A stretch of DNA of 21,824 bases, from assembly GCA_964493715.1 (NCBI GenBank), contig CAZBPC010000055.1, positions 1-21,824 of the forward strand, read 5' to 3'. The DNA is from an uncultured archaeon. Its GTDB lineage: Archaea > Asgardarchaeota > Lokiarchaeia > Sigyniarchaeales > SOKP01. A program made the position numbers and the translations under genes. Shown piece after piece: positions 2,415-21,174 of the stretch (position 1 is its first letter; each line of letters begins with the position of its first letter). The notes beneath the pieces are model-generated. The model ran no database searches. It had not been told where the DNA came from and saw nothing but the letters and a program-made list of their open reading frames with translations.

Positions 2415-3779
2415 GTGAAAACTAATAAACCTATGAAAGTAGTAATTATTGGAAATAACGTAGCAGGGACTTTCACGGCTCAAAATATAAGATCTCTCAA
2501 TGAAGATATTGAAATCCACATCTATACGCAAGAACAGTATCCTTACTACACAAGGATTAAACTTCCAGAATTAATATCAAAAAAAGTCAACATTGAGAAT
2601 ATAATAGTATTTAAAGAAAATTGGTATAAGACCAACCGAATAAATTTACATCTGAATAAAAAAGTACTAAAAATCGATCCAAAGAATAAAACTATCTTTT
2701 TTGAGAGGGATAGTAACCCATTACAATATGATAAACTGATCCTTGCTTTAGGAAGTATTCCAAATATTCCATCTATTAAAAATGCAAGAGAAATGAAGGA
2801 TCAAAATAAAGGTGTGTTCACTTTACGAAGTATAGATGATGCATTAAACATTAGAGAATATATCGAAAAATTGTCCGTAAAGAAAGCGATTGTAATTGGA
2901 GGAGGGCTTTTAGGATTAGAATTGGCGAATCAGTTAAAAGATACAACCCTAGAAACCACGGTTGTAGAATTTTTTCCAAGATTATTACCACGACAACTTG
3001 ATGAAGAATGTGGAACCATGCTTAAAGATGAAATCGAAAACCGGGGCATTAAAGTGGTTTTGAATGCCACTACTGAAGAAATCTTGGGAAACAGTAAGGT
3101 TAGTGGAATTAAATTAAAGGATGGAAGAATTCTTGATGCAGGTATAATTCTGATCCAAGCTGGAATTAATTTAACAATTGATTTGGCTAAAAATGCAGGA
3201 ATTACGACGAATAGGGGAATTTTAGTAAATGAATTTATGGAGACTAGTGAAAAGGAGATTTATGCCGTAGGAGATTGCATCGAATACAAAAATCAAGTTT
3301 GGGGAATCATCCCTGCATGCATGGAACAATCAAAAATAGCAGCAGCTTCCATCATTGGATCCCAAAAGGTTGAATATGAGGGAACCACCCCCAAAAATAC
3401 TTTAAAGATAGTCGGTCTTGATCTTACTTCAATAGGCGTAATAGATCCCTCAAGGGAAGAATCTGGGGGTTGGGATATTTTAAAAAAAGCGGATAAGAAA
3501 GATTGTTGCTATCAAAAAATAATTCTAAAGGATAATAAACTCAAGGGAGCGATTCTTTTAGGAGAAAATAAAGCGATGCCATATATCACTAAAAAAATGG
3601 AAGAAGATGTAGATAAAGAAGAGCTTAGAAATTTGTTAGAATTATATGTTTATGTGTGTAATAATTGTGGAATGGAATATGATGAAGCAAAAATGAATGT
3701 CATGTTTGATGACTTGCCCGATGATTTTAAATGTCCAGGTTGCGGTGGATCCAAGGATAATTTTAGAAAAAAGGAATAA
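2415..3779 (+). CDS. NAD(P)H:rubredoxin oxidoreductase-like flavoprotein with a C-terminal rubredoxin domain (start may be ATG 2433)
   Basis: VVIIGNNVAG (FAD), YDKLILALGS, VIGGGLLGLE (NADH), IYAVGDC; C-terminal CNNCG...LPDDFKCPGCG. Confidence 0.9.
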   Translation: MKTNKPMKVVIIGNNVAGTFTAQNIRSLNEDIEIHIYTQEQYPYYTRIKLPELISKKVNIENIIVFKENWYKTNRINLHLNKKVLKIDPKNKTIFFERDSNPLQYDKLILALGSIPNIPSIKNAREMKDQNKGVFTLRSIDDALNIREYIEKLSVKKAIVIGGGLLGLELANQLKDTTLETTVVEFFPRLLPRQLDEECGTMLKDEIENRGIKVVLNATTEEILGNSKVSGIKLKDGRILDAGIILIQAGINLTIDLAKNAGITTNRGILVNEFMETSEKEIYAVGDCIEYKNQVWGIIPACMEQSKIAAASIIGSQKVEYEGTTPKNTLKIVGLDLTSIGVIDPSREESGGWDILKKADKKDCCYQKIILKDNKLKGAILLGENKAMPYITKKMEEDVDKEELRNLLELYVYVCNNCGMEYDEAKMNVMFDDLPDDFKCPGCGGSKDNFRKKE

Positions 3780-3794
3780 ATAAGAGAAAAAATC

Positions 3795-3941
3795 ATGACC
3801 GTTTATAGATGTAAAAGATGTAATTATCTCTATATTGATGAGGAACAAGGAAAAGCCTTTGAACATGTCGAACGTGATTACAAATGTCCTAATTGTCGTG
3901 CCTCAAAGAGTTTCTTTGTTAAAAAGGAACATATCAAGTAA
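3795..3941 (+). CDS. Small rubredoxin-like protein, 48 aa; not in the ORF track
   Basis: MTVYRCKRCNYLYIDEEQGKAFEHVERDYKCPNCRASKSFFVKKEHIK*; two CxxC motifs with rubredoxin spacing and conserved aromatics; starts 15 nt after the upstream stop. Confidence 0.85.
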   Translation: MTVYRCKRCNYLYIDEEQGKAFEHVERDYKCPNCRASKSFFVKKEHIK

Positions 3942-3987
3942 GGTTTTTAAATTTATTATCATGTTTCTTTTTTTAGGTGAAGATATT

Positions 3988-5610
3988 ATGGTATATGATA
4001 TAATTATTAAAAATGGTAAAATAATTAGTGGTGCAGGGAATCCTTGGTATCACGGAGAAATTGGCATTATAGGAGGAAGAATTGCCAAAATCAGACCCAA
4101 GATAAATAATGATGCTGAGAAAATAATTGATGCCTATGGGTTAATCGTTTGTCCGGGATTTATTGATATTCATTCTCATACTGATTATATCTTACCGGTA
4201 AATAGAAGTCAAGAATCAACCTTGTGTCAAGGAATCACGACAACAATGGTAGGCATGTGCGGAGATGGAATGGCTCCTATTCCGAAAGGTAAGGAAAAAG
4301 ATTTTAAGAAAAAAATAGCAAAAATCGATCCTGTACTTAAACAATTTGATTATCCTTATCACACTTTCAAAGAATACTTGGAATATAATGATCGCAAAAG
4401 AAATTCAGCAAACTTAGCTTTTTGTGTAGGTTATGGGAACATAAGGTGGGCAGGAGGTCAAGCTTTTGAAAATCGAGTAGCAACACCAGAAGAAATGGAA
4501 CGGATGAAAAGTTATTTACGAGAAGCCATGGAAGCTGGAGCGTTCGGGATGAGTACAGGGTTGATTTATGCCCCTCAAATTTTTGCTAAAACGGAAGAAT
4601 TAATTGAACTAGCAACAATAGTGGGGGAATATAATGGATTGTACTTCTCGCATATTCGGAGTGAAGGAAAGGAGATTATTAAAGCAATAAAAGAAGCTAT
4701 CGAAATCGTCGAAAAATCGGGATGCCGTGGAGGTCAAATCGCACACCATAAAGTTGCTGGTGAACAATTTTGGGGAGGAAGCATCCATACTTTAAAATTA
4801 TTTGAGGACGCTAATGAAAGAGGAATACTCATGACCTATGATCAATATCCGTATAATAGAGGCATGTCAGATCTTGCAACAGCACTCCCACCGTGGACTC
4901 GTGAAGGAAATAATGATATTATCCTAGAACGAATAAAAGATCCAGAAATTCAAGAGAAAATCAAAAAGGATGTTGAGGAAGGAATCGAAGGATGGGAAAA
5001 TTGGATTAAAAATGAAGGGATGAAAAACATTTACATCTCAACCGTGGGTTCAGATAAGTGGAGGGATGTCGCTACTTTAAGCATTCCTGAAATCACTAAA
5101 AAGAAAGGTTTGATTGATGATTGGGATACCTTTTTTACATTACTGATTGATAATAAATTGGCGGTAGGAATCACGATTGAAAGTATGGGCGAGGAGGATG
5201 TACGACGAATAATGACGGGACGGTATCAAATGGTAGGTACTGATGGAGCAGGTATTCCTGCATCTTTCAGTTCTGGAGCATTTCATCCCCGATTTTTTGG
5301 GACCTATCCCCGCATTCTAGGTAAATATGTAAGAGAGGAAGAAATCTTAACCCTTGAAGAAGCGATACGAAAGATGACCTCTTTTCCAGCGAGTAAGCTT
5401 GGCCTTCAAGATAGGGGGCTAATTCGGGAAGGAAATTGGGCAGATATCGTCATGCTTGATCCATTAAAAGTAAAAGATACCGCTACTTATGAACACCCTT
5501 ATCAACTTCCCGAAGGAATTCCACATGTTATCGTGAATGGAGTAATTGTGGTCCAAAATGGAAAAAAAAATAAAAAATCTCCGGGAAAAGTTATCCTACG
5601 CCCAACCTAA
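3988..5610 (+). CDS. N-acyl-D-amino-acid deacylase (D-aminoacylase family amidohydrolase); true start ATG 3988, not 3835
   Basis: MVYDIIIKNG start preceded by AGGTGA (3975-3980); PGFIDIHSH, GMCGDG, SHIRSE, HHKVAG, GTDG, HPRFFGTYPR, EEAIRKMT motifs; the longer ORF call overlaps the rubredoxin gene. Confidence 0.92.
   Translation: MVYDIIIKNGKIISGAGNPWYHGEIGIIGGRIAKIRPKINNDAEKIIDAYGLIVCPGFIDIHSHTDYILPVNRSQESTLCQGITTTMVGMCGDGMAPIPKGKEKDFKKKIAKIDPVLKQFDYPYHTFKEYLEYNDRKRNSANLAFCVGYGNIRWAGGQAFENRVATPEEMERMKSYLREAMEAGAFGMSTGLIYAPQIFAKTEELIELATIVGEYNGLYFSHIRSEGKEIIKAIKEAIEIVEKSGCRGGQIAHHKVAGEQFWGGSIHTLKLFEDANERGILMTYDQYPYNRGMSDLATALPPWTREGNNDIILERIKDPEIQEKIKKDVEEGIEGWENWIKNEGMKNIYISTVGSDKWRDVATLSIPEITKKKGLIDDWDTFFTLLIDNKLAVGITIESMGEEDVRRIMTGRYQMVGTDGAGIPASFSSGAFHPRFFGTYPRILGKYVREEEILTLEEAIRKMTSFPASKLGLQDRGLIREGNWADIVMLDPLKVKDTATYEHPYQLPEGIPHVIVNGVIVVQNGKKNKKSPGKVILRPT
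5353..5387 (+). repeat. 35-bp perfect direct repeat, copy 1 (inside the D-aminoacylase 3' region)
   Basis: CTTGAAGAAGCGATACGAAAGATGACCTCTTTTCC is identical at 5353-5387 and 6437-6471. Confidence 0.97.
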
Positions 5611-5963: not shown

Positions 5964-6404
5964 GTGCTTAATTTGGGCGTTTTTCTTGATAGCGGTTTTT
6001 ATCTTGGTCTTTGTCACCCAAAGGATAAATACGCGGAACAAAGCGAACGAATTTTAAAAGAATTAGCCACGGGGAATTATGGAGTTCTCTATACATCTTA
6101 TTTCATTGTAAATGAAGTCACAACATTAGCCGCAATTAGATCTAAAAATAACATCAAAGTGTTCAACCACCTTGAAAAATTATTATGGGGGAGTGAGAAA
6201 ATTGCAAGTATTCTTCCTTTCGATTTAAATAATGAACACGAAACATGGGAATTATTCAAAAAGATAAATATTACTGACTTGAAAGATAAAAAACCAATGA
6301 GTTTTACAGATATCAGTTCTATTATATTATGCAATCACCACCAAATCGAACATATCGTGAGCTTTGATTCTCATTTTGATAGGTTTCTTCAAAGAGTATT
6401 TTAA
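5964..6404 (+). CDS. vapC: PIN-domain VapC-family toxin (GTG start)
   Basis: VFLDSG, IVNEV, SFTD, SFDSHF give the acidic PIN catalytic residues; 146 aa. Confidence 0.9.
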   Translation: MLNLGVFLDSGFYLGLCHPKDKYAEQSERILKELATGNYGVLYTSYFIVNEVTTLAAIRSKNNIKVFNHLEKLLWGSEKIASILPFDLNNEHETWELFKKINITDLKDKKPMSFTDISSIILCNHHQIEHIVSFDSHFDRFLQRVF

Positions 6405-6708: not shown

Positions 6709-6843
6709 ATGGCTAAATATGAGTGTGGAGCTTGCGGCTATGTTTATGACGAAGATGTCGAAGGAACAAAATGGGAAGACCTCCCCGATGACTGGGTGTG
6801 CCCAGTATGTGGAGTAGATAAGAGTTTCTTTACTAAAATTTAA
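6709..6843 (+). CDS. Rubredoxin, 44 aa, short-chain type; not in the ORF track
   Basis: [44 protein letters not shown]; canonical CxxCGY and [11 protein letters not shown]. Confidence 0.97.
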
Positions 6844-6862
6844 GAACAGACCATTGAATATT

Positions 6863-6880
6863 ACTTTTTTTATTTTTTTC
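6863..6880 (+). terminator. Oligo-T tract after the rubredoxin gene (possible archaeal-type terminator)
   Basis: ACTTTTTTTATTTTTTTC about 20 nt after the stop codon. Confidence 0.35.
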
Positions 6881-7022
6881 ATTTAATTATTAAAACATTT
6901 TAATTTCATTTTAATTCTTAAACTTCTGGCAAATTTCTAAAAAATAGAAATCAAATTTATAAAAAGTATAAATCTCTAATTCATATTATAATATACTACT
7001 ACTAAAAAAGGGTGAAAATTAC

Positions 7023-8234
7023 ATGAATGATTTAGAAATCATGAAAGATGTTTCATATGTTGGATACGTGGATTGGGAAGTTAGGAACTTTCATGGCTAT
7101 TCAACGCATAAAGGATCATCATATAATGCATATTTGGTAAAAACGGGAGATAAATACGTGTTGATAGATACTGTAAAAAGACCATACTTCAAGTATTATT
7201 TAGAAAACATTCAAGCAGTGTGTGATCCAAAAGATATTGCCTATTTTATCGTGAATCATATCGAACCTGATCATTCAGGTTCCTTTCCGTTAATATTAGA
7301 ATATTTACCTAATGCTGAGATTATAGCCTCAACCAAGGGGGTAGAAATTTTAGAACAACATTATCACGAAGAAGTAGATAAAATTGTTTTTGAAAAAATA
7401 CGCGCAGTAAAAAATGGTGATACTTTAAACGTTGGAAATGGTAAAATTTTTACTTTTGTTCCTATTCCGATGATTCATTGGCCTGATTCGATGGTTTCTT
7501 TTATGACTGACGAGAATGGGAAAAATGTGTTATTTTCCAACGATGCCTTCGGGCAGCATTTTGCGACATCAAAACACTGGGATGATGAAAATAATTTTTC
7601 AGAAATAATGTGGGAAGCGGAAAAGTATTATGCGAACATTTTACTTCATTTATCAAATCTGATTGCTAAAACCCTCCCTGTTGTTGGAGCCCTGCCAATA
7701 GAGATCATTTGTCCTTCACATGGGGTGTGCTGGAGAAAACATATTCCTGATATCATAGAAGCTTATACTAAATGGTCGAGTGGTGAAATTGAAGAAAATA
7801 CTGCATTGATTATTTATGATAGCATGTGGGAAAGTACAACCAAGATTGCGAAAGAATTATACCACGAGATTTGGCGAAGGGGAATTCCGGTAAAAAGATT
7901 CAATTTAACTTCTTCTGATTATAGTGATGTTATAACCGAAGCAATGAAAGCTAAAGCGATTTTAGTTGGAAGTCCAACTTTAAATAGGGGCCTTTTTCCT
8001 TCAGTAGCACAATATTTATGCTACCAAAAAGGCTTAAAACCTATGAACAAGGTCGGTTTAGCATTCGGGTCGTATGGTTGGAGTAGAGGAGCAGTTAGAA
8101 CTATAATCAGTGAAATGGAAGCCACGGGAATAGCGATGTTGGACGATTCAATTGAAATACAATTCGTACCAAGGCCTAGTGATTTAAACTTTAAGGAAAT
8201 CGTGGATAAATTAGTTAAAAAAATGGAGGCATAA
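7023..8234 (+). CDS. fprA: Class A flavodiiron protein (O2/NO reductase)
   Basis: GSSYNAYL, NHIEPDHSGS (HxExDH), IHWPDSM, FSNDAFGQH, PSHG; flavodoxin domain YDSMWESTT, GSPTLN, FGSYGWS; GGGTGA RBS at 7010-7015. Confidence 0.96.
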   Translation: MNDLEIMKDVSYVGYVDWEVRNFHGYSTHKGSSYNAYLVKTGDKYVLIDTVKRPYFKYYLENIQAVCDPKDIAYFIVNHIEPDHSGSFPLILEYLPNAEIIASTKGVEILEQHYHEEVDKIVFEKIRAVKNGDTLNVGNGKIFTFVPIPMIHWPDSMVSFMTDENGKNVLFSNDAFGQHFATSKHWDDENNFSEIMWEAEKYYANILLHLSNLIAKTLPVVGALPIEIICPSHGVCWRKHIPDIIEAYTKWSSGEIEENTALIIYDSMWESTTKIAKELYHEIWRRGIPVKRFNLTSSDYSDVITEAMKAKAILVGSPTLNRGLFPSVAQYLCYQKGLKPMNKVGLAFGSYGWSRGAVRTIISEMEATGIAMLDDSIEIQFVPRPSDLNFKEIVDKLVKKMEA

Positions 8235-8238
8235 ACTC

Positions 8239-9420
8239 TTGGATTTTTCATTAACCGAAGAACAAAAAGCTCTTCAGCAAAAAGCACGGAATTTTGCAAT
8301 AAATGAAGTTTTACCAGTTGCGAAGAAGTATGATGAGTCTGAAGAATTTCCAATGCCCGTTATTAAAAAAGCCTGGGAAGAAGGATTATTAAATTTAGGT
8401 ATTCCAAAACAATATGGTGGTCTTGGATATGGTTTAATTGAATCTTGCATCGTTGTGGAAGAAATATCTTCTGCATGCCCTGGCATGGCTACTTCAATAT
8501 TTGATAATAATCTCGGAGCGGAACCAATAATTATAGGGGGCAATGAAGAACAAAAAACTCGAATATTAGGAGAACTCATAAAGGAATTTAAATTGATAGC
8601 ATTCGCGACTTCAGAACCTACTATGGGTTCTGATGTGGCAGGAATGAAATGTAAAGCAGAAAAAGATGGTGACGAATACATCCTTAATGGAGCTAAGTTT
8701 TGGATCACAAATGGTGGTTTTGCAGATTATATAACCGTTTTTGCAACGGAAGATCCTGAGAAAAAGCATAAAGGTATAGCAGCTTTCATAGTTGACACTA
8801 AAGCAGAAGGAGTAAAACTTGGGAAACATATTCCTAAACTTGGTCAAAGAGCATCAAATACCGTAGCCGTTTCACTTAAAAATGTAAGAATTCCTAAAGA
8901 TAACGTATTAGCAAAACCTGGTAGGGGTTTTGTTGTTGCAATGCAAACTTTCGCTCATACTCGACCTGCGATAGGAGCCTTCGCGGTCGGGTGTGCTCGC
9001 TCAGCCATGGAATATTCTATTGATTATGCTCAAAAAAGAGAAGCTTTTGGTAGACCAATTAGCAATTATCAAGCTATCCAACAAAAGATAGCAGATATGT
9101 ACAAGGATATCGAAGCAGCGAGATTACTAACATATAAAGCAGCGTGGGAAGCAGATCAAGGGCTCGATAATAACATGAGTTCAGCAGTTGCCAAAGCTTT
9201 TGCGTCTGATGTTGCAATGAGGGTGACCACCGAAGCGATTCAAGTTTATGGGGGTTATGGATATTTAAGGACTTACCCCGTTGAAAAACTCTTTAGAGAT
9301 GCGAAACTTTACCAAATTTATGAGGGAACTAGTGAAATACAAAGAATTGTCATATCTCGTTTTGCACTTAAAGGATACAAACATGCAATGCCTAGTGTAT
9401 TCAAAAGAGATAGAGTTTAA
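8239..9420 (+). CDS. Acyl-CoA dehydrogenase (short-chain/butyryl-CoA-like), TTG start
   Basis: FATSEPTMGSDV, LNGAKFWITNG, REAFGRPI, QVYGGYGY, FRDAKLYQIYEGTSEIQR (catalytic Glu); GGAGG at 8225-8229 inside the fprA 3' end. Confidence 0.95.
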   Translation: MDFSLTEEQKALQQKARNFAINEVLPVAKKYDESEEFPMPVIKKAWEEGLLNLGIPKQYGGLGYGLIESCIVVEEISSACPGMATSIFDNNLGAEPIIIGGNEEQKTRILGELIKEFKLIAFATSEPTMGSDVAGMKCKAEKDGDEYILNGAKFWITNGGFADYITVFATEDPEKKHKGIAAFIVDTKAEGVKLGKHIPKLGQRASNTVAVSLKNVRIPKDNVLAKPGRGFVVAMQTFAHTRPAIGAFAVGCARSAMEYSIDYAQKREAFGRPISNYQAIQQKIADMYKDIEAARLLTYKAAWEADQGLDNNMSSAVAKAFASDVAMRVTTEAIQVYGGYGYLRTYPVEKLFRDAKLYQIYEGTSEIQRIVISRFALKGYKHAMPSVFKRDRV

Positions 9421-9539
9421 ATCTGTCTTCTAAAAATTTAATTTTTCTTTTTATTAAAATACATCATTTTGAATTGTTTTTGATTATTTTTATACCCTTG
9501 ATAATCTAAATAATAAAAAAAAGAAAAGAGTTTTAAAAT

Positions 9540-13361: not shown

Positions 13362-13892
13362 ATGGATGCTGAAAACAATTTAATTAAATTGATTAAATCA
13401 AGGAGAAGCATAAGAAATTTTGTTTATGAAAAAATAAGCAATGATACGATTAAAGAAATTCTCGAGTGTGGTCGTTGGGCCCCTTCTGCAAATAATTGTC
13501 AACCTTGGAAGGTATGTGTTGTAATTCATCCTACTGTGAAGAGAATGCTTGCAGAATTATCTAATGATGGTGGGATCATAGAAAATGCTTATGTAAATTT
13601 TGTTATATTTTTAGATGTTGAAAAAGGATCTGAACGAGTTAAAGATGTTCAATCATTAGGAGCCTTTATTCAAAATATTCTGTTAGGTGTTCAATCGAAG
13701 GGTTTAGGAGCTGTTTGGATCGGTGAAATTTTAAAAAACAAAGAACGAGTCAATGAAATATTTAAATTACCAATGGAAAAATTTGAACTGATGTGTGTCA
13801 TTGCCATGGGTGTTATCGATGAACCGGTGGCAAATCAAAAAATAAAAGAAAGAGAGAGATATCCTTTAGAGGATATTATAGAATTTTATTAA
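13362..13892 (+). CDS. Nitroreductase-family flavoprotein
   Basis: SRRSIRNF, WAPSANNCQPW, GLGAVWIG. Confidence 0.92.
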   Translation: MDAENNLIKLIKSRRSIRNFVYEKISNDTIKEILECGRWAPSANNCQPWKVCVVIHPTVKRMLAELSNDGGIIENAYVNFVIFLDVEKGSERVKDVQSLGAFIQNILLGVQSKGLGAVWIGEILKNKERVNEIFKLPMEKFELMCVIAMGVIDEPVANQKIKERERYPLEDIIEFY

Positions 13893-13901
13893 TCTATTGA
13901 G

Positions 13902-14594
13902 TTATTTCTTTTTCTCAAGCTTATTTTTTTTCATTTCTTTGAATTCTTTAGAAAAAAATTCATTTCCATAATGAGAAAATAACACGGCTGTAGGATCATG
14001 CGGAGCTGATCGATCCTTTGCAATTAAGGTTGTAACAGGAGCTTCTGAAAGATGAGTAAAAGTTATATCATGCCCAACACATAATCCAACGATTACATTC
14101 ATCTCGGTTTCTGCTTCATTTAGTAGCAGAGCTTGCGCTGCTGGGTTACAAGTAATCCATCCTATGGTATACCCTGTTTTTGAGAACATGGTATATTCTT
14201 CAGGAATCCCTACTTCCGTTTTTTTTACTCCTCCAGTCTTACAGCAGGTTGAGATCACTTCAAAACCATAATTTTCAAGTATTTCCGCGACTCTCTTCAC
14301 TTCTCGAAGCATCCCTACACAAAAAGCAAGTCCCAATCTATTATATCCCATTCCTTTGGCATATTCTACAGTATCTTTTAAACGTGACCAATGAATATAT
14401 CCTCTTGCTTCCACGATGGATGCTACTGCCGTAGATTTCTTAATAAATTCATCGGAGTCATACAAATCTCTCGCCTCCTTTTCAATTTTAGGATAAATTT
14501 TCATTGGACAGTTTTCTAATATCTTACTTGCTCGACCTACTGCACAATATTTGATTCCATTGCATTTATGACAAGTTGGTGCATTCATCTTCAA
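13902..14594 (-). CDS. DUF1847-family Cys-rich putative metal-binding protein (start TTG 14594 or ATG 14588)
   Basis: N-terminal CxxC...C...C; LGLAFCVG, CCKTGG, CNPAAQA, GLCVGHD, TTLIAKDR motifs. Confidence 0.85.
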   Translation of the reverse strand: MKMNAPTCHKCNGIKYCAVGRASKILENCPMKIYPKIEKEARDLYDSDEFIKKSTAVASIVEARGYIHWSRLKDTVEYAKGMGYNRLGLAFCVGMLREVKRVAEILENYGFEVISTCCKTGGVKKTEVGIPEEYTMFSKTGYTIGWITCNPAAQALLLNEAETEMNVIVGLCVGHDITFTHLSEAPVTTLIAKDRSAPHDPTAVLFSHYGNEFFSKEFKEMKKNKLEKKK

Positions 14595-19925: not shown

Positions 19926-21116
19926 TTATAAATCATGAAGAATCAATCCAGATAACACTTTAGGATCAAACCACGTAGATTTTGGTGGCATAACACCTCC
20001 AAGATCTGCGATAGCTTCCAAATCCTTGATATTAACGGGATATAAATTAAAAAAGATATCATTTCCTTTTTCTGTTACATATCTTTCCATATCAATAGGA
20101 TTCTTTACACCTCCTACAAAAAAGATATTCTCATCCGCTCGTGGATCAGATATGCCTAAAATTGGATTCAAAACTTTATCTTGAAGTATAGCAACATCGA
20201 GACTATCGCGCTTTGATTTGAAATCTTTATCTTTCACACTTAATTCATACCACTTTCCTTTCAGACACATTGCTACTTGGTTTTTTCTTTTTGGATCAAA
20301 AGCTCTATCTTTTTGTTTAATCTCATATATTTCTCCCAATTTTTTCAGAAAATCTTCGACACTCATCAGTAATTTTTTAATTACTCGATTATAAGGAAGG
20401 ATTTGAATTTGATCATCAGAGGCAACATAAGAGAGGAGATATTGCCAAGGTTTATCCAATTCATCCATATCATTTTTACTTAATTGTATTTTACGGTATT
20501 CAGCAGCACTTGCGGCACGATGATGCCCGTCTGCGATATAGACCTTTTTATTTTTAAACAATTGAGCTAATTTTTCAATAATCTTCGTGTCAGTCTCTTG
20601 CCATAAAAAATGTTTGTAATCATTCATTGAAAAAATGAATATAGGATCCTTCATTTTGATTTTTTCAATTGTTTTATTAATTTTTTTATTTGCTGAAAAA
20701 ACACACCACACGAGTCCCGCAGCTACATTAGTTGCTAAAATATGATTAGTTCGATCTTTAAGAGCTTTCTCACGAGTATATTCATGCCTTACAATATTTC
20801 CCTCTTCATAATCTTGTAAAGATAAACCCATAATTAGACCTTGATGACTAAAGGATCTAGATTCCTGCCTATATACAAAAATACTTGGTTGATCTTCTTT
20901 GGTTATCAATCCATCATCTTTATATCGTTGAAAAGCTTTAGCTGCATTCTCGTATATCTCTTTTCCATTACCATCAGGCAAGATAAGATGAATTAGTGAG
21001 TTAGGATTAAGTTTTAATTTTTTTGCTTCCTCATCACTAATCACATCATAAGGATTTGTTGTAAATTCTTCCGGATTTCTTGGTAAATAGGGCTTTAAAG
21101 GTGATATTTTAACCAT
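19926..21116 (-). CDS. DUF1015-family protein (ParB/sulfiredoxin-like core); likely start ATG 21116 (ORF track gives 21140)
   Basis: PYDVIS, IVRHEYT, YIADGHHR, ILPYNR, MPPKSTWFDPKVLSGL are characteristic DUF1015 motifs. Confidence 0.9.
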   Translation of the reverse strand: MVKISPLKPYLPRNPEEFTTNPYDVISDEEAKKLKLNPNSLIHLILPDGNGKEIYENAAKAFQRYKDDGLITKEDQPSIFVYRQESRSFSHQGLIMGLSLQDYEEGNIVRHEYTREKALKDRTNHILATNVAAGLVWCVFSANKKINKTIEKIKMKDPIFIFSMNDYKHFLWQETDTKIIEKLAQLFKNKKVYIADGHHRAASAAEYRKIQLSKNDMDELDKPWQYLLSYVASDDQIQILPYNRVIKKLLMSVEDFLKKLGEIYEIKQKDRAFDPKRKNQVAMCLKGKWYELSVKDKDFKSKRDSLDVAILQDKVLNPILGISDPRADENIFFVGGVKNPIDMERYVTEKGNDIFFNLYPVNIKDLEAIADLGGVMPPKSTWFDPKVLSGLILHDL

Positions 21117-21174
21117 AATATGCATTAATGGTATGTGCATAATAAAATAGTTTCTATTTTAGGTTAACAAATTT

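Follow-up and report, generated by a model that had tools for sequence, protein, structure and literature searches.

A stretch of 21,824 nt from an uncultured archaeon of the Lokiarchaeia (order Sigyniarchaeales; assembly GCA_964493715.1, contig CAZBPC010000055.1, positions 1 to 21,824), referred to here as the window, encodes a small free rubredoxin, a class A flavodiiron protein (FDP, gene fprA) and an acyl-CoA dehydrogenase (ACAD) in three co-directional genes. Lokiarchaeia are strict anaerobes and count among the living lineages most closely related to the archaeal ancestor of eukaryotes. We consider it somewhat probable that the fprA-ACAD pair, together with the free rubredoxin, makes up a three-protein acyl-CoA:oxygen oxidoreductase chain, parallel to a branch that takes electrons from NAD(P)H through an NAD(P)H:rubredoxin oxidoreductase (NROR). 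This proposal is supported by a tight operon, by a class-wide FDP-ACAD pairing that appears to have survived replacement of the FDP, by rubredoxin fusions in ACAD orthologues, by the loss of the acidic residue found at the Glu212 site of medium-chain acyl-CoA dehydrogenase (MCAD), and by a bacterial precedent, the butyryl-CoA:oxygen oxidoreductase (BOOR) of Fusobacterium nucleatum. Directly observed are the genes with their domain content, the conserved arrangement of the operon and the fusions.

In the proposed chain, a medium- or short-chain acyl-CoA would be oxidized to enoyl-CoA at the FAD of the ACAD, which would be re-oxidized by rubredoxin in one-electron steps and not by electron transfer flavoprotein (ETF). 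Rubredoxin would then reduce the FMN of the class A FDP, whose diiron site would reduce O2 to water (or NO to N2O). An NROR-rubredoxin fusion protein would be a second, parallel feeder from NAD(P)H into the same rubredoxin pool, which would also serve desulfoferrodoxin and rubrerythrin; the ACAD chain would be an extra donor branch and not a replacement for NAD(P)H. We infer each of these electron-transfer steps, as well as the substrate and the product, from the genes and their comparison.

Gene calls and Pfam matches agree on the three genes, which all lie on the plus strand (Table 1), as stated in the preliminary description. The free rubredoxin, the proposed electron carrier, scores 54.7 bits against the PF00301 model (cut-off 23), and its residues C6, C9, C31 and C34, which make up two CxxC pairs, are unchanged in 25 sequences. 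Compared with the tethered rubredoxins of relatives it lacks 8 residues, and because it is such a short form it falls under the NF045768 cut-off. The FDP, the proposed terminal O2 (or NO) reductase, consists of an ODP domain (residues 34-234) and a Flavodoxin_1 domain (residues 263-387), with no extra module found by Pfam. Its translation contains the stretch HIEPDH, which fits HxExDH, presumably the diiron ligand motif of flavodiiron proteins. The three ACAD domains of the dehydrogenase (Table 1) all score above their cut-offs. In its 393 residues, Pfam detected neither an ETF_alpha nor a rubredoxin domain, and no Cys pairs are present at the C-terminus.

As the preliminary description had read from the sequence, the TTG start of the ACAD gene lies only 4 nt past the fprA stop (8235-8238), with its GGAGG ribosome-binding site inside the end of fprA. 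The spacer between the rubredoxin gene and fprA is 179 nt long (6844-7022) and contains an oligo-T tract, a type of sequence that signals transcription termination in archaea. Because of this spacer and tract, the rubredoxin gene is probably a transcription unit of its own, and fprA-ACAD would be the bicistronic core.

The FDP-ACAD adjacency extends beyond this one genome. In one survey, the ACAD was searched in 60 genomes, the window's own included, and neighbors were mapped in 30 loci. In another, 80 loci were taken from genome records with 4-kb flanks. Five of these were bacterial (Bacteriovoracaceae and Anaerolineae; ACAD 49-53% identical), with no rubredoxin or FDP gene near the ACAD within the flanks, and 75 were archaeal, with ACADs 71-90% identical to that of the window. 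The closest loci (84-90%) belong to Promethearchaeota/Promethearchaeia archaea, which bears out the archaeal origin surmised earlier. In 60 of these 75, a same-strand FDP gene ends at most 60 nt upstream of the ACAD gene, and in three a divergent FDP gene lies 61-400 nt upstream. Seven loci (L045, L072, L076, L103, L105, L106 and L109; ACAD fused or unfused to rubredoxin) contain no FDP gene and have a rubredoxin gene directly upstream of the ACAD; these look like clean fprA deletions. One locus has neither gene, and in four the flank was too short. The FDP stop and the ACAD start are 3-20 nt apart in 57 of the 58 related loci that allowed a measurement, and a GAGG-type site is present; ATG is the start codon of the ACAD in 50 and TTG in four. 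Five genomes of the genus have no ACAD orthologue: in three of them a contig end truncates the FDP gene, and the other two (G025 and G013) gave no strong FDP match.

More weight than these counts of close kin is carried by a deeper sample, which reaches into other families of the same order and class; its 20 loci have ACADs 49-60% identical to that of the window. An FDP gene was found within 5 kb of the ACAD in 16 of them: directly adjacent in six, on the same strand at 0.2-1.1 kb in four, about 3.8 kb upstream in four, and in the order FDP-NROR-ACAD in two. One further locus has NROR-ACAD without FDP. In families f2 and f4 (L121-L129, L135-L139), the FDP is of a second lineage and only about 32% identical to the window FDP; FDPs of more distant class-level relatives are 44-50% identical to it. 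Loci L093-L095 also carry an FDP of the second lineage, despite ACADs 82-84% identical to that of the window; over both sets of loci, identity of this lineage to the window FDP is about 32-35%. These divergent FDPs imply that the gene was replaced at a fixed position in L093-L095 and in f2/f4, which argues that the pairing outlived the replacement of the FDP lineage. Outside Lokiarchaeia the ACAD orthogroup is common, with a match (E 1e-105 or better) in 178 of 299 Asgard genomes. Among 20 such loci sampled, 14 had no rubredoxin, FDP, rubrerythrin, NROR or desulfoferrodoxin gene within 5 kb; the other six (families f27 and f13) had such genes nearby, not as an operon.

Several orthologues of the ACAD carry a rubredoxin of their own. 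Fusions were derived by extending each orthologue to its stop codon, and Pfam was applied to two of them, L100 and L127. The clade of the window accounts for 59 of the 75 close loci; its proteins are 391-396 aa long and unfused. In a sister subclade of the same genus (13 complete sequences and three cut by contig ends), the proteins reach 467-472 aa, with a Lys/Glu-rich linker and a full rubredoxin at the C-terminus (PF00301, 77.9 bits in L100). Fourteen orthologues from other families of the order (444-452 aa) end in a short rubrerythrin-type rubredoxin (PF21349, 45.1 bits in L127), while five class-level relatives (381-386 aa) are unfused. The rubredoxin-fused orthologues are 54-80% identical to the window ACAD, and no ETF_alpha domain was found by Pfam in L100 or L127. 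Where the ACAD is fused, a free rubredoxin is still encoded upstream of fprA (e.g. L100, L101 and L107).

A maximum-likelihood tree of 105 ACAD domains was obtained by a quick search with SH-aLRT support only, leaving out sequences shorter than 330 aa and exact duplicates over the first 385 residues; it was rooted on five paralogues of the organism's own genome, and the outgroup branches are long. In this tree the Lokiarchaeial orthogroup is one clade (support 95), and so are the proteins with the short rubredoxin (99). The proteins with the long rubredoxin fall inside the genus clade, separately from the short-rubredoxin clade, and the window sequence belongs to an unfused clade of 60 rows. 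Two rows scored without fusion in the long-rubredoxin clade are artefacts, since L028 is cut by a contig end and L036 is N-terminally partial with the tail present. The most economical history suggested by the tree starts from an unfused ancestor, with rubredoxins of different types fused on at least two independent occasions; in this history the window would probably represent the untethered, ancestral form. Independent fusions of this kind are strong comparative evidence for electron exchange between the ACAD orthogroup and a rubredoxin-type iron center. The functional link between ACAD and rubredoxin that had been proposed from the window is thereby backed by its orthologues.

When the rubredoxin tail of one fused orthologue was used as query, 87 matches were obtained from 95 candidates, and the ACADs among them were only the Lokiarchaeial ACAD-rubredoxin fusions. 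Proteins of at least 689 aa (70 matches) included ACAD+ETF fusions (P0119, P0123 and P0124) and no ACAD+FDP or ACAD+ETF_alpha+rubredoxin fusion, a negative that carries little weight. A separate arrangement was observed in f12 (L141-L148), another family of the phylum, where all eight sampled loci have a gene for a 4Fe-4S dicluster-domain protein directly upstream of the ACAD orthologue on the same strand. This protein is conserved at 57-65% identity over about 336 aa. In L147, an HdrA-like/MvhD (FlpD) fusion precedes the dicluster gene upstream of the ACAD (345-2645 and 2624-4906), and L141 encodes the Fe-S part and a Pyr_redox_2/Fer4_20 module in one protein of 972 aa. These Fe-S proteins may be a different non-ETF partner of the same ACAD orthogroup.

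The window ACAD itself aligns over its full length with the Thermus thermophilus ACAD 1UKW (E 5e-122) and with the ETF-dependent pig and human MCADs (1UDY, 3MDD, 1T9G and 2A1T; about 1e-113 to 1e-119), whereas structures of the butyryl-CoA dehydrogenase (Bcd)/SCAD type are further away (E 1e-77 to 1e-90). No NCBIfam equivalog reached its cut-off; the best match was the acryloyl-CoA reductase AcrC, with 379 bits against a cut-off of 640. The protein, our proposed acyl-CoA:rubredoxin oxidoreductase, thus appears MCAD-like and not obviously a butyryl-CoA dehydrogenase, so that the description of the locus as an archaeal equivalent of the butyryl-CoA enzyme is not supported on this point. Residue E362 of the motif IYEGT, which we take to be the catalytic base (Glu376 of MCAD), and W155, aligned with MCAD Trp166, are both conserved with respect to MCAD and invariant in 32 orthologues, and the ACAD therefore looks catalytically intact.

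According to the available part of PMC10925408, seven MCAD residues form the pocket for the ETF recognition loop, and a salt bridge between MCAD Glu212 and ETF alpha-Arg249 is key. In the window ACAD, Ile198-Pro199 is aligned with Glu212 and its neighbor. Position 199 is Pro in 89 of 90 FDP-linked orthologues at the order level and Lys in five at the class level; among 14 Asgard orthologues without an FDP link, 11 have Glu at this position, and the Bcd encoded beside EtfBA in the same genome has Glu-Asp at the equivalents of 198-199. Only 2 of 385 columns separate linked from unlinked sequences, and the site equivalent to Glu212 is one of them. This change is suggestive of an altered electron acceptor. 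A shift in isoelectric point was also considered as the mark of a basic rubredoxin-docking surface on FDP-linked ACADs and was rejected (medians 6.58 and 6.43, no signal).

The genome assembly (3.68 Mb in 160 contigs, G+C 31.3%, rated 100% complete) gives 15 matches to the ACAD C-terminal domain at about 14 loci, 19 crotonase-family matches and 6 matches to 3-hydroxyacyl-CoA dehydrogenase. Its sole EtfB/EtfA pair, on contig 9, immediately follows the gene for a Bcd-like paralogue that shares 43% identity with the window ACAD. The EtfA (405 aa; contig 9, 16278-18295) has an N-terminal ferredoxin-like 4Fe-4S segment, and the order Bcd paralogue-EtfB-EtfA is typical of Bcd-Etf clusters in anaerobes. 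Other ACAD paralogues, on contigs 1 and 95, adjoin crotonase and 3-hydroxyacyl-CoA dehydrogenase genes. By contrast, the window ACAD stands beside the FDP, and no ETF or beta-oxidation gene is among the Pfam matches of the window proteins, as had been noted before. By tblastn, the only FDP, the only desulfoferrodoxin and all rubredoxins of the genome are in the window. Acyl-CoA metabolism and ETF thus exist in this organism, yet the window ACAD is placed with an FDP. The earlier claim of a route independent of ETF and NADH is not established, in view of the NROR-rubredoxin fusion in the same gene island, the standard NAD(P)H entry to rubredoxin and FDP, and of EtfBA beside the Bcd paralogue.

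The nearest known system is BOOR. The available parts of PMC12288474 describe it in F. nucleatum as composed of BCR (FN1424) and an FDP (FN1423), and attribute it to Bystrom & Wolthers 2024 (Biochemistry 63:2352). The BCR subunit consists of Bcd, the C-terminal FAD domain of EtfA and rubredoxin, and the FDP is a separate, adjacent class A gene (PMC12288474). The preliminary description, in which all three modules were fused in Fusobacterium, was inexact in this respect and had missed the EtfA domain; the precedent that it saw for an acyl-CoA-rubredoxin-FDP system is sound. As far as the same parts of PMC12288474, PMC12630350 and PMC13404960 go, the alpha4-beta4 complex takes electrons from butyryl-CoA to convert O2 to water, has no NO reductase activity and occurs in Fusobacterium and butyrogenic Firmicutes.

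The Lokiarchaeial locus resembles BOOR in that ACAD, rubredoxin and class A FDP are encoded together, with FDP and ACAD genes bicistronic in both. Both also stand in the oxygen-defense context of an anaerobe, with rubrerythrin-type genes beside them, and the proposed flow from acyl-CoA through rubredoxin and FDP to O2 is the same. However, BCR carries the EtfA FAD domain (PF00766), which the window ACAD is without, and its rubredoxin is fused C-terminally, whereas that of the window is a separate 44-aa protein. Furthermore, the window ACAD looks closer to MCAD than to Bcd, and the host is an Asgard archaeon. Since two defining features of BOOR, the EtfA domain and the tethered rubredoxin, are absent, the locus should not be filed as a BOOR member, although it may well work like one. 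The claim of an undescribed system can be kept for the archaeal form without EtfA and not for the kind of system, which BOOR already represents; no Asgard FDP-ACAD system is described in the titles and abstract openings of the literature found, although supplements may hold annotations.

Other known arrangements share parts of the locus. The Lokiarchaeial ACAD-rubredoxin fusions belong to the same orthogroup, follow the FDP gene directly, have NROR, desulfoferrodoxin and rubrerythrin as partners and lack the EtfA domain; they differ by their tethered rubredoxin, the window's clade being untethered with a free rubredoxin in trans, if any. The chains of anaerobes in which NROR and rubredoxin supply FDP, superoxide reductase or rubrerythrin, for example the five-gene cluster of Moorella thermoacetica (reference 58 in the available part of PMC12288474), match the window in having NROR, rubredoxin, class A FDP, desulfoferrodoxin and rubrerythrin in one island. 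They include no ACAD, whereas the FDP gene of the window has an ACAD gene coupled to it in translation. With respect to ETF-dependent MCADs, finally, the window ACAD differs in its genomic partner, an FDP and not ETF or beta-oxidation genes, and in the Ile-Pro replacing the residue aligned with Glu212.

A number of points weigh against the proposed chain. Direct transfer from FAD to rubredoxin is without tested precedent, because BOOR has the EtfA FAD domain in between and this locus has none. The fusion evidence is borrowed from orthologues, the window ACAD being unfused. Most of the loci behind the counts of 60 in 75 and 57 in 58 are close kin, so that these counts overstate independent support. 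The signal at the Glu212-equivalent site is post hoc and phylogenetically confounded, and Glu is not universal there, as 1UKW is without it and LCAD has another Glu. A degraded ETF docking pocket in the FDP-linked clade was looked for and had to be rejected, since the seven pocket positions are alike in linked and unlinked sequences; the ACAD also keeps its MCAD-like N-terminal helices. Given the unchanged pocket, FDP-linked ACADs may still be able to dock ETF, and the genome has one EtfBA pair. The NROR-rubredoxin fusion alone would explain a rubredoxin-FDP function in the island. Moreover, in view of the 14 unlinked loci outside Lokiarchaeia, the FDP link is best described as a conserved, lineage-specific rewiring of an older Asgard ACAD and not as intrinsic to the protein. 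Several of these points would fit an ordinary wiring. NAD(P)H would then be the sole electron source of FDP, desulfoferrodoxin and rubrerythrin, by way of the NROR-rubredoxin fusion and the free rubredoxin. The ACAD would be a normal catabolic enzyme that depends on ETF, a passenger whose co-transcription with fprA has regulatory or historical grounds and which, in the unfused lineage, gives no electrons to rubredoxin. We regard this wiring as unlikely, though not to be dismissed lightly. It agrees with an NROR-rubredoxin gene conserved next to the trio, with a typical MCAD-like ACAD and with the lack of a tethered rubredoxin in the window. It leaves unexplained why the 3-20 nt junction is kept, why the adjacency outlasts replacement of the FDP lineage, why rubredoxin and ACAD genes are adjacent in the seven loci where the FDP gene is deleted, and why two independent rubredoxin fusions arose in one orthogroup. 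Nor does it account for the acidic residue at the Glu212 position being lost in the FDP-linked clade and kept in the Bcd beside EtfBA.

The chemistry might also run in reverse, with the ACAD-family protein taking electrons from NROR-reduced rubredoxin and either reducing enoyl-CoA or acryloyl-CoA or working on an acyl thioester damaged by oxidation; it would then be a repair or detoxification enzyme of a stress island and not a donor to O2. Rubredoxin potentials are near 0 mV, which leaves little driving force from rubredoxin to enoyl-CoA, whereas transfer to O2 is strongly downhill. The AcrC match would suit a reductase, although it is far under its cut-off and no specialized family model reaches one. 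In some class-level loci (L131 and L134) NROR is the immediate neighbor of the ACAD, and one of these loci has no FDP close by, but the conserved direct neighbor is the FDP and not NROR. ACAD-family enzymes are reversible, as is Bcd in butyrate fermentation (available part of PMC12630350); the only experimentally studied ACAD-rubredoxin-FDP system nevertheless runs from acyl-CoA to O2, as far as the available part of PMC12288474 describes it. Taken together, these features make the reverse direction improbable.

The trio is part of a larger oxygen-defense island (Table 1). An NROR-rubredoxin fusion is kept upstream of the trio in most related loci. In the window, the NROR gene is followed after 15 nt by a second, divergent rubredoxin-like open reading frame (ORF), which has no NCBIfam match. 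The island thus holds three rubredoxin-type centers, apart from desulfoferrodoxin and rubrerythrin. Downstream of the ACAD, the desulfoferrodoxin scores 141.6 bits with TIGR00320, slightly below the cut-off of 146.9. The 801-aa fusion protein at the far end scores 516 bits with TIGR03385, below the cut-off of 578.8, and is kept at that end of the island in many relatives. Two small abutting ORFs between an amidohydrolase gene and the rubredoxin gene have no Pfam match at E 1e-3. Their layout resembles by eye a toxin-antitoxin pair, and the 146-aa product has what we take to be PIN-like acidic positions, a candidate resemblance.

Table 1. Features of the fprA-ACAD locus and of the surrounding island, in window coordinates.
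Feature	Position	Strand	Domains and remarks
NAD(P)H:rubredoxin oxidoreductase (NROR) with C-terminal rubredoxin, 454 aa	2415-3779	+	PF07992, PF18267 (Rubredoxin_C), PF00301
Second rubredoxin-like ORF, 48 aa	3795-3941	+	Two CxxC pairs; tblastn 39.5% identity to free rubredoxin, E 1e-7
Two abutting small ORFs, 94 and 146 aa	5676-5960, 5964-6404		Between amidohydrolase and rubredoxin
Free rubredoxin, 44 aa	ATG 6709 to stop 6841-6843	+	PF00301, E 1e-14
Oligo-T tract 3' of rubredoxin gene	6865-6879	+	Candidate archaeal terminator; sequence reading
Class A flavodiiron protein (FDP, fprA), 403 aa	ATG 7023 to TAA 8232-8234	+	PF19583, PF00258
GGAGG, ACAD ribosome-binding site	8225-8229	+	Within fprA end, 9 nt before TTG
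Acyl-CoA dehydrogenase (ACAD), 393 aa	TTG 8239 to TAA 9418-9420	+	PF02771, PF02770, PF00441
T-rich tract 3' of ACAD stop	9437-9452	+	Candidate terminator of the fprA-ACAD unit; sequence reading
Desulfoferrodoxin (superoxide reductase), 130 aa	9540-9932	-	PF01880, PF06397; convergent with ACAD
Rubrerythrin, 192 aa	10056-10634	-	PF02915, PF21349; NF045767 above cut-off
CoA-disulfide-reductase-like flavoprotein + rhodanese + TusA + rhodanese, 801 aa	10750-13155	-	PF07992, PF02852, PF00581 (two stretches), PF01206
Nitroreductase	13362-13892		
DUF1847 protein	13902-14594	-	Island flank
DUF1015 protein	19926-21140	-	Island flank

To return to the proposed acyl-CoA:oxygen chain, a sharper form of it would be that Lokiarchaeia hold a minimal, ETF-free acyl-CoA:rubredoxin oxidoreductase, in which the FAD of a plain MCAD-like ACAD passes electrons to a 44-aa rubredoxin and from there to the FDP. 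We advance this tentatively, as a real possibility that may well turn out otherwise. If it is true, the EtfA FAD domain of the bacterial BOOR would be dispensable, an ordinary ACAD would accept a one-iron rubredoxin, and the set of ACAD acceptors would be wider than ETF. What the locus adds is an untethered and probably ancestral form, two apparently independent fusions, the change at the Glu212 equivalent and a link specific to Lokiarchaeia. The unfused and twice-fused forms in close relatives make up a natural series on tethering and electron transfer, and the three proteins are small and soluble, which opens the hypothesis to direct test. For the organism, the chain would mean removal of O2 without spending NAD(P)H, and an oxygen defense tied to fatty-acid and amino-acid catabolism. 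How Lokiarchaeia deal with oxygen is a central question for models of eukaryogenesis; if the proposal is true, the closest archaeal relatives of eukaryotes would use acyl-CoA derived from fatty acids or amino acids as a dedicated electron sink for oxygen.

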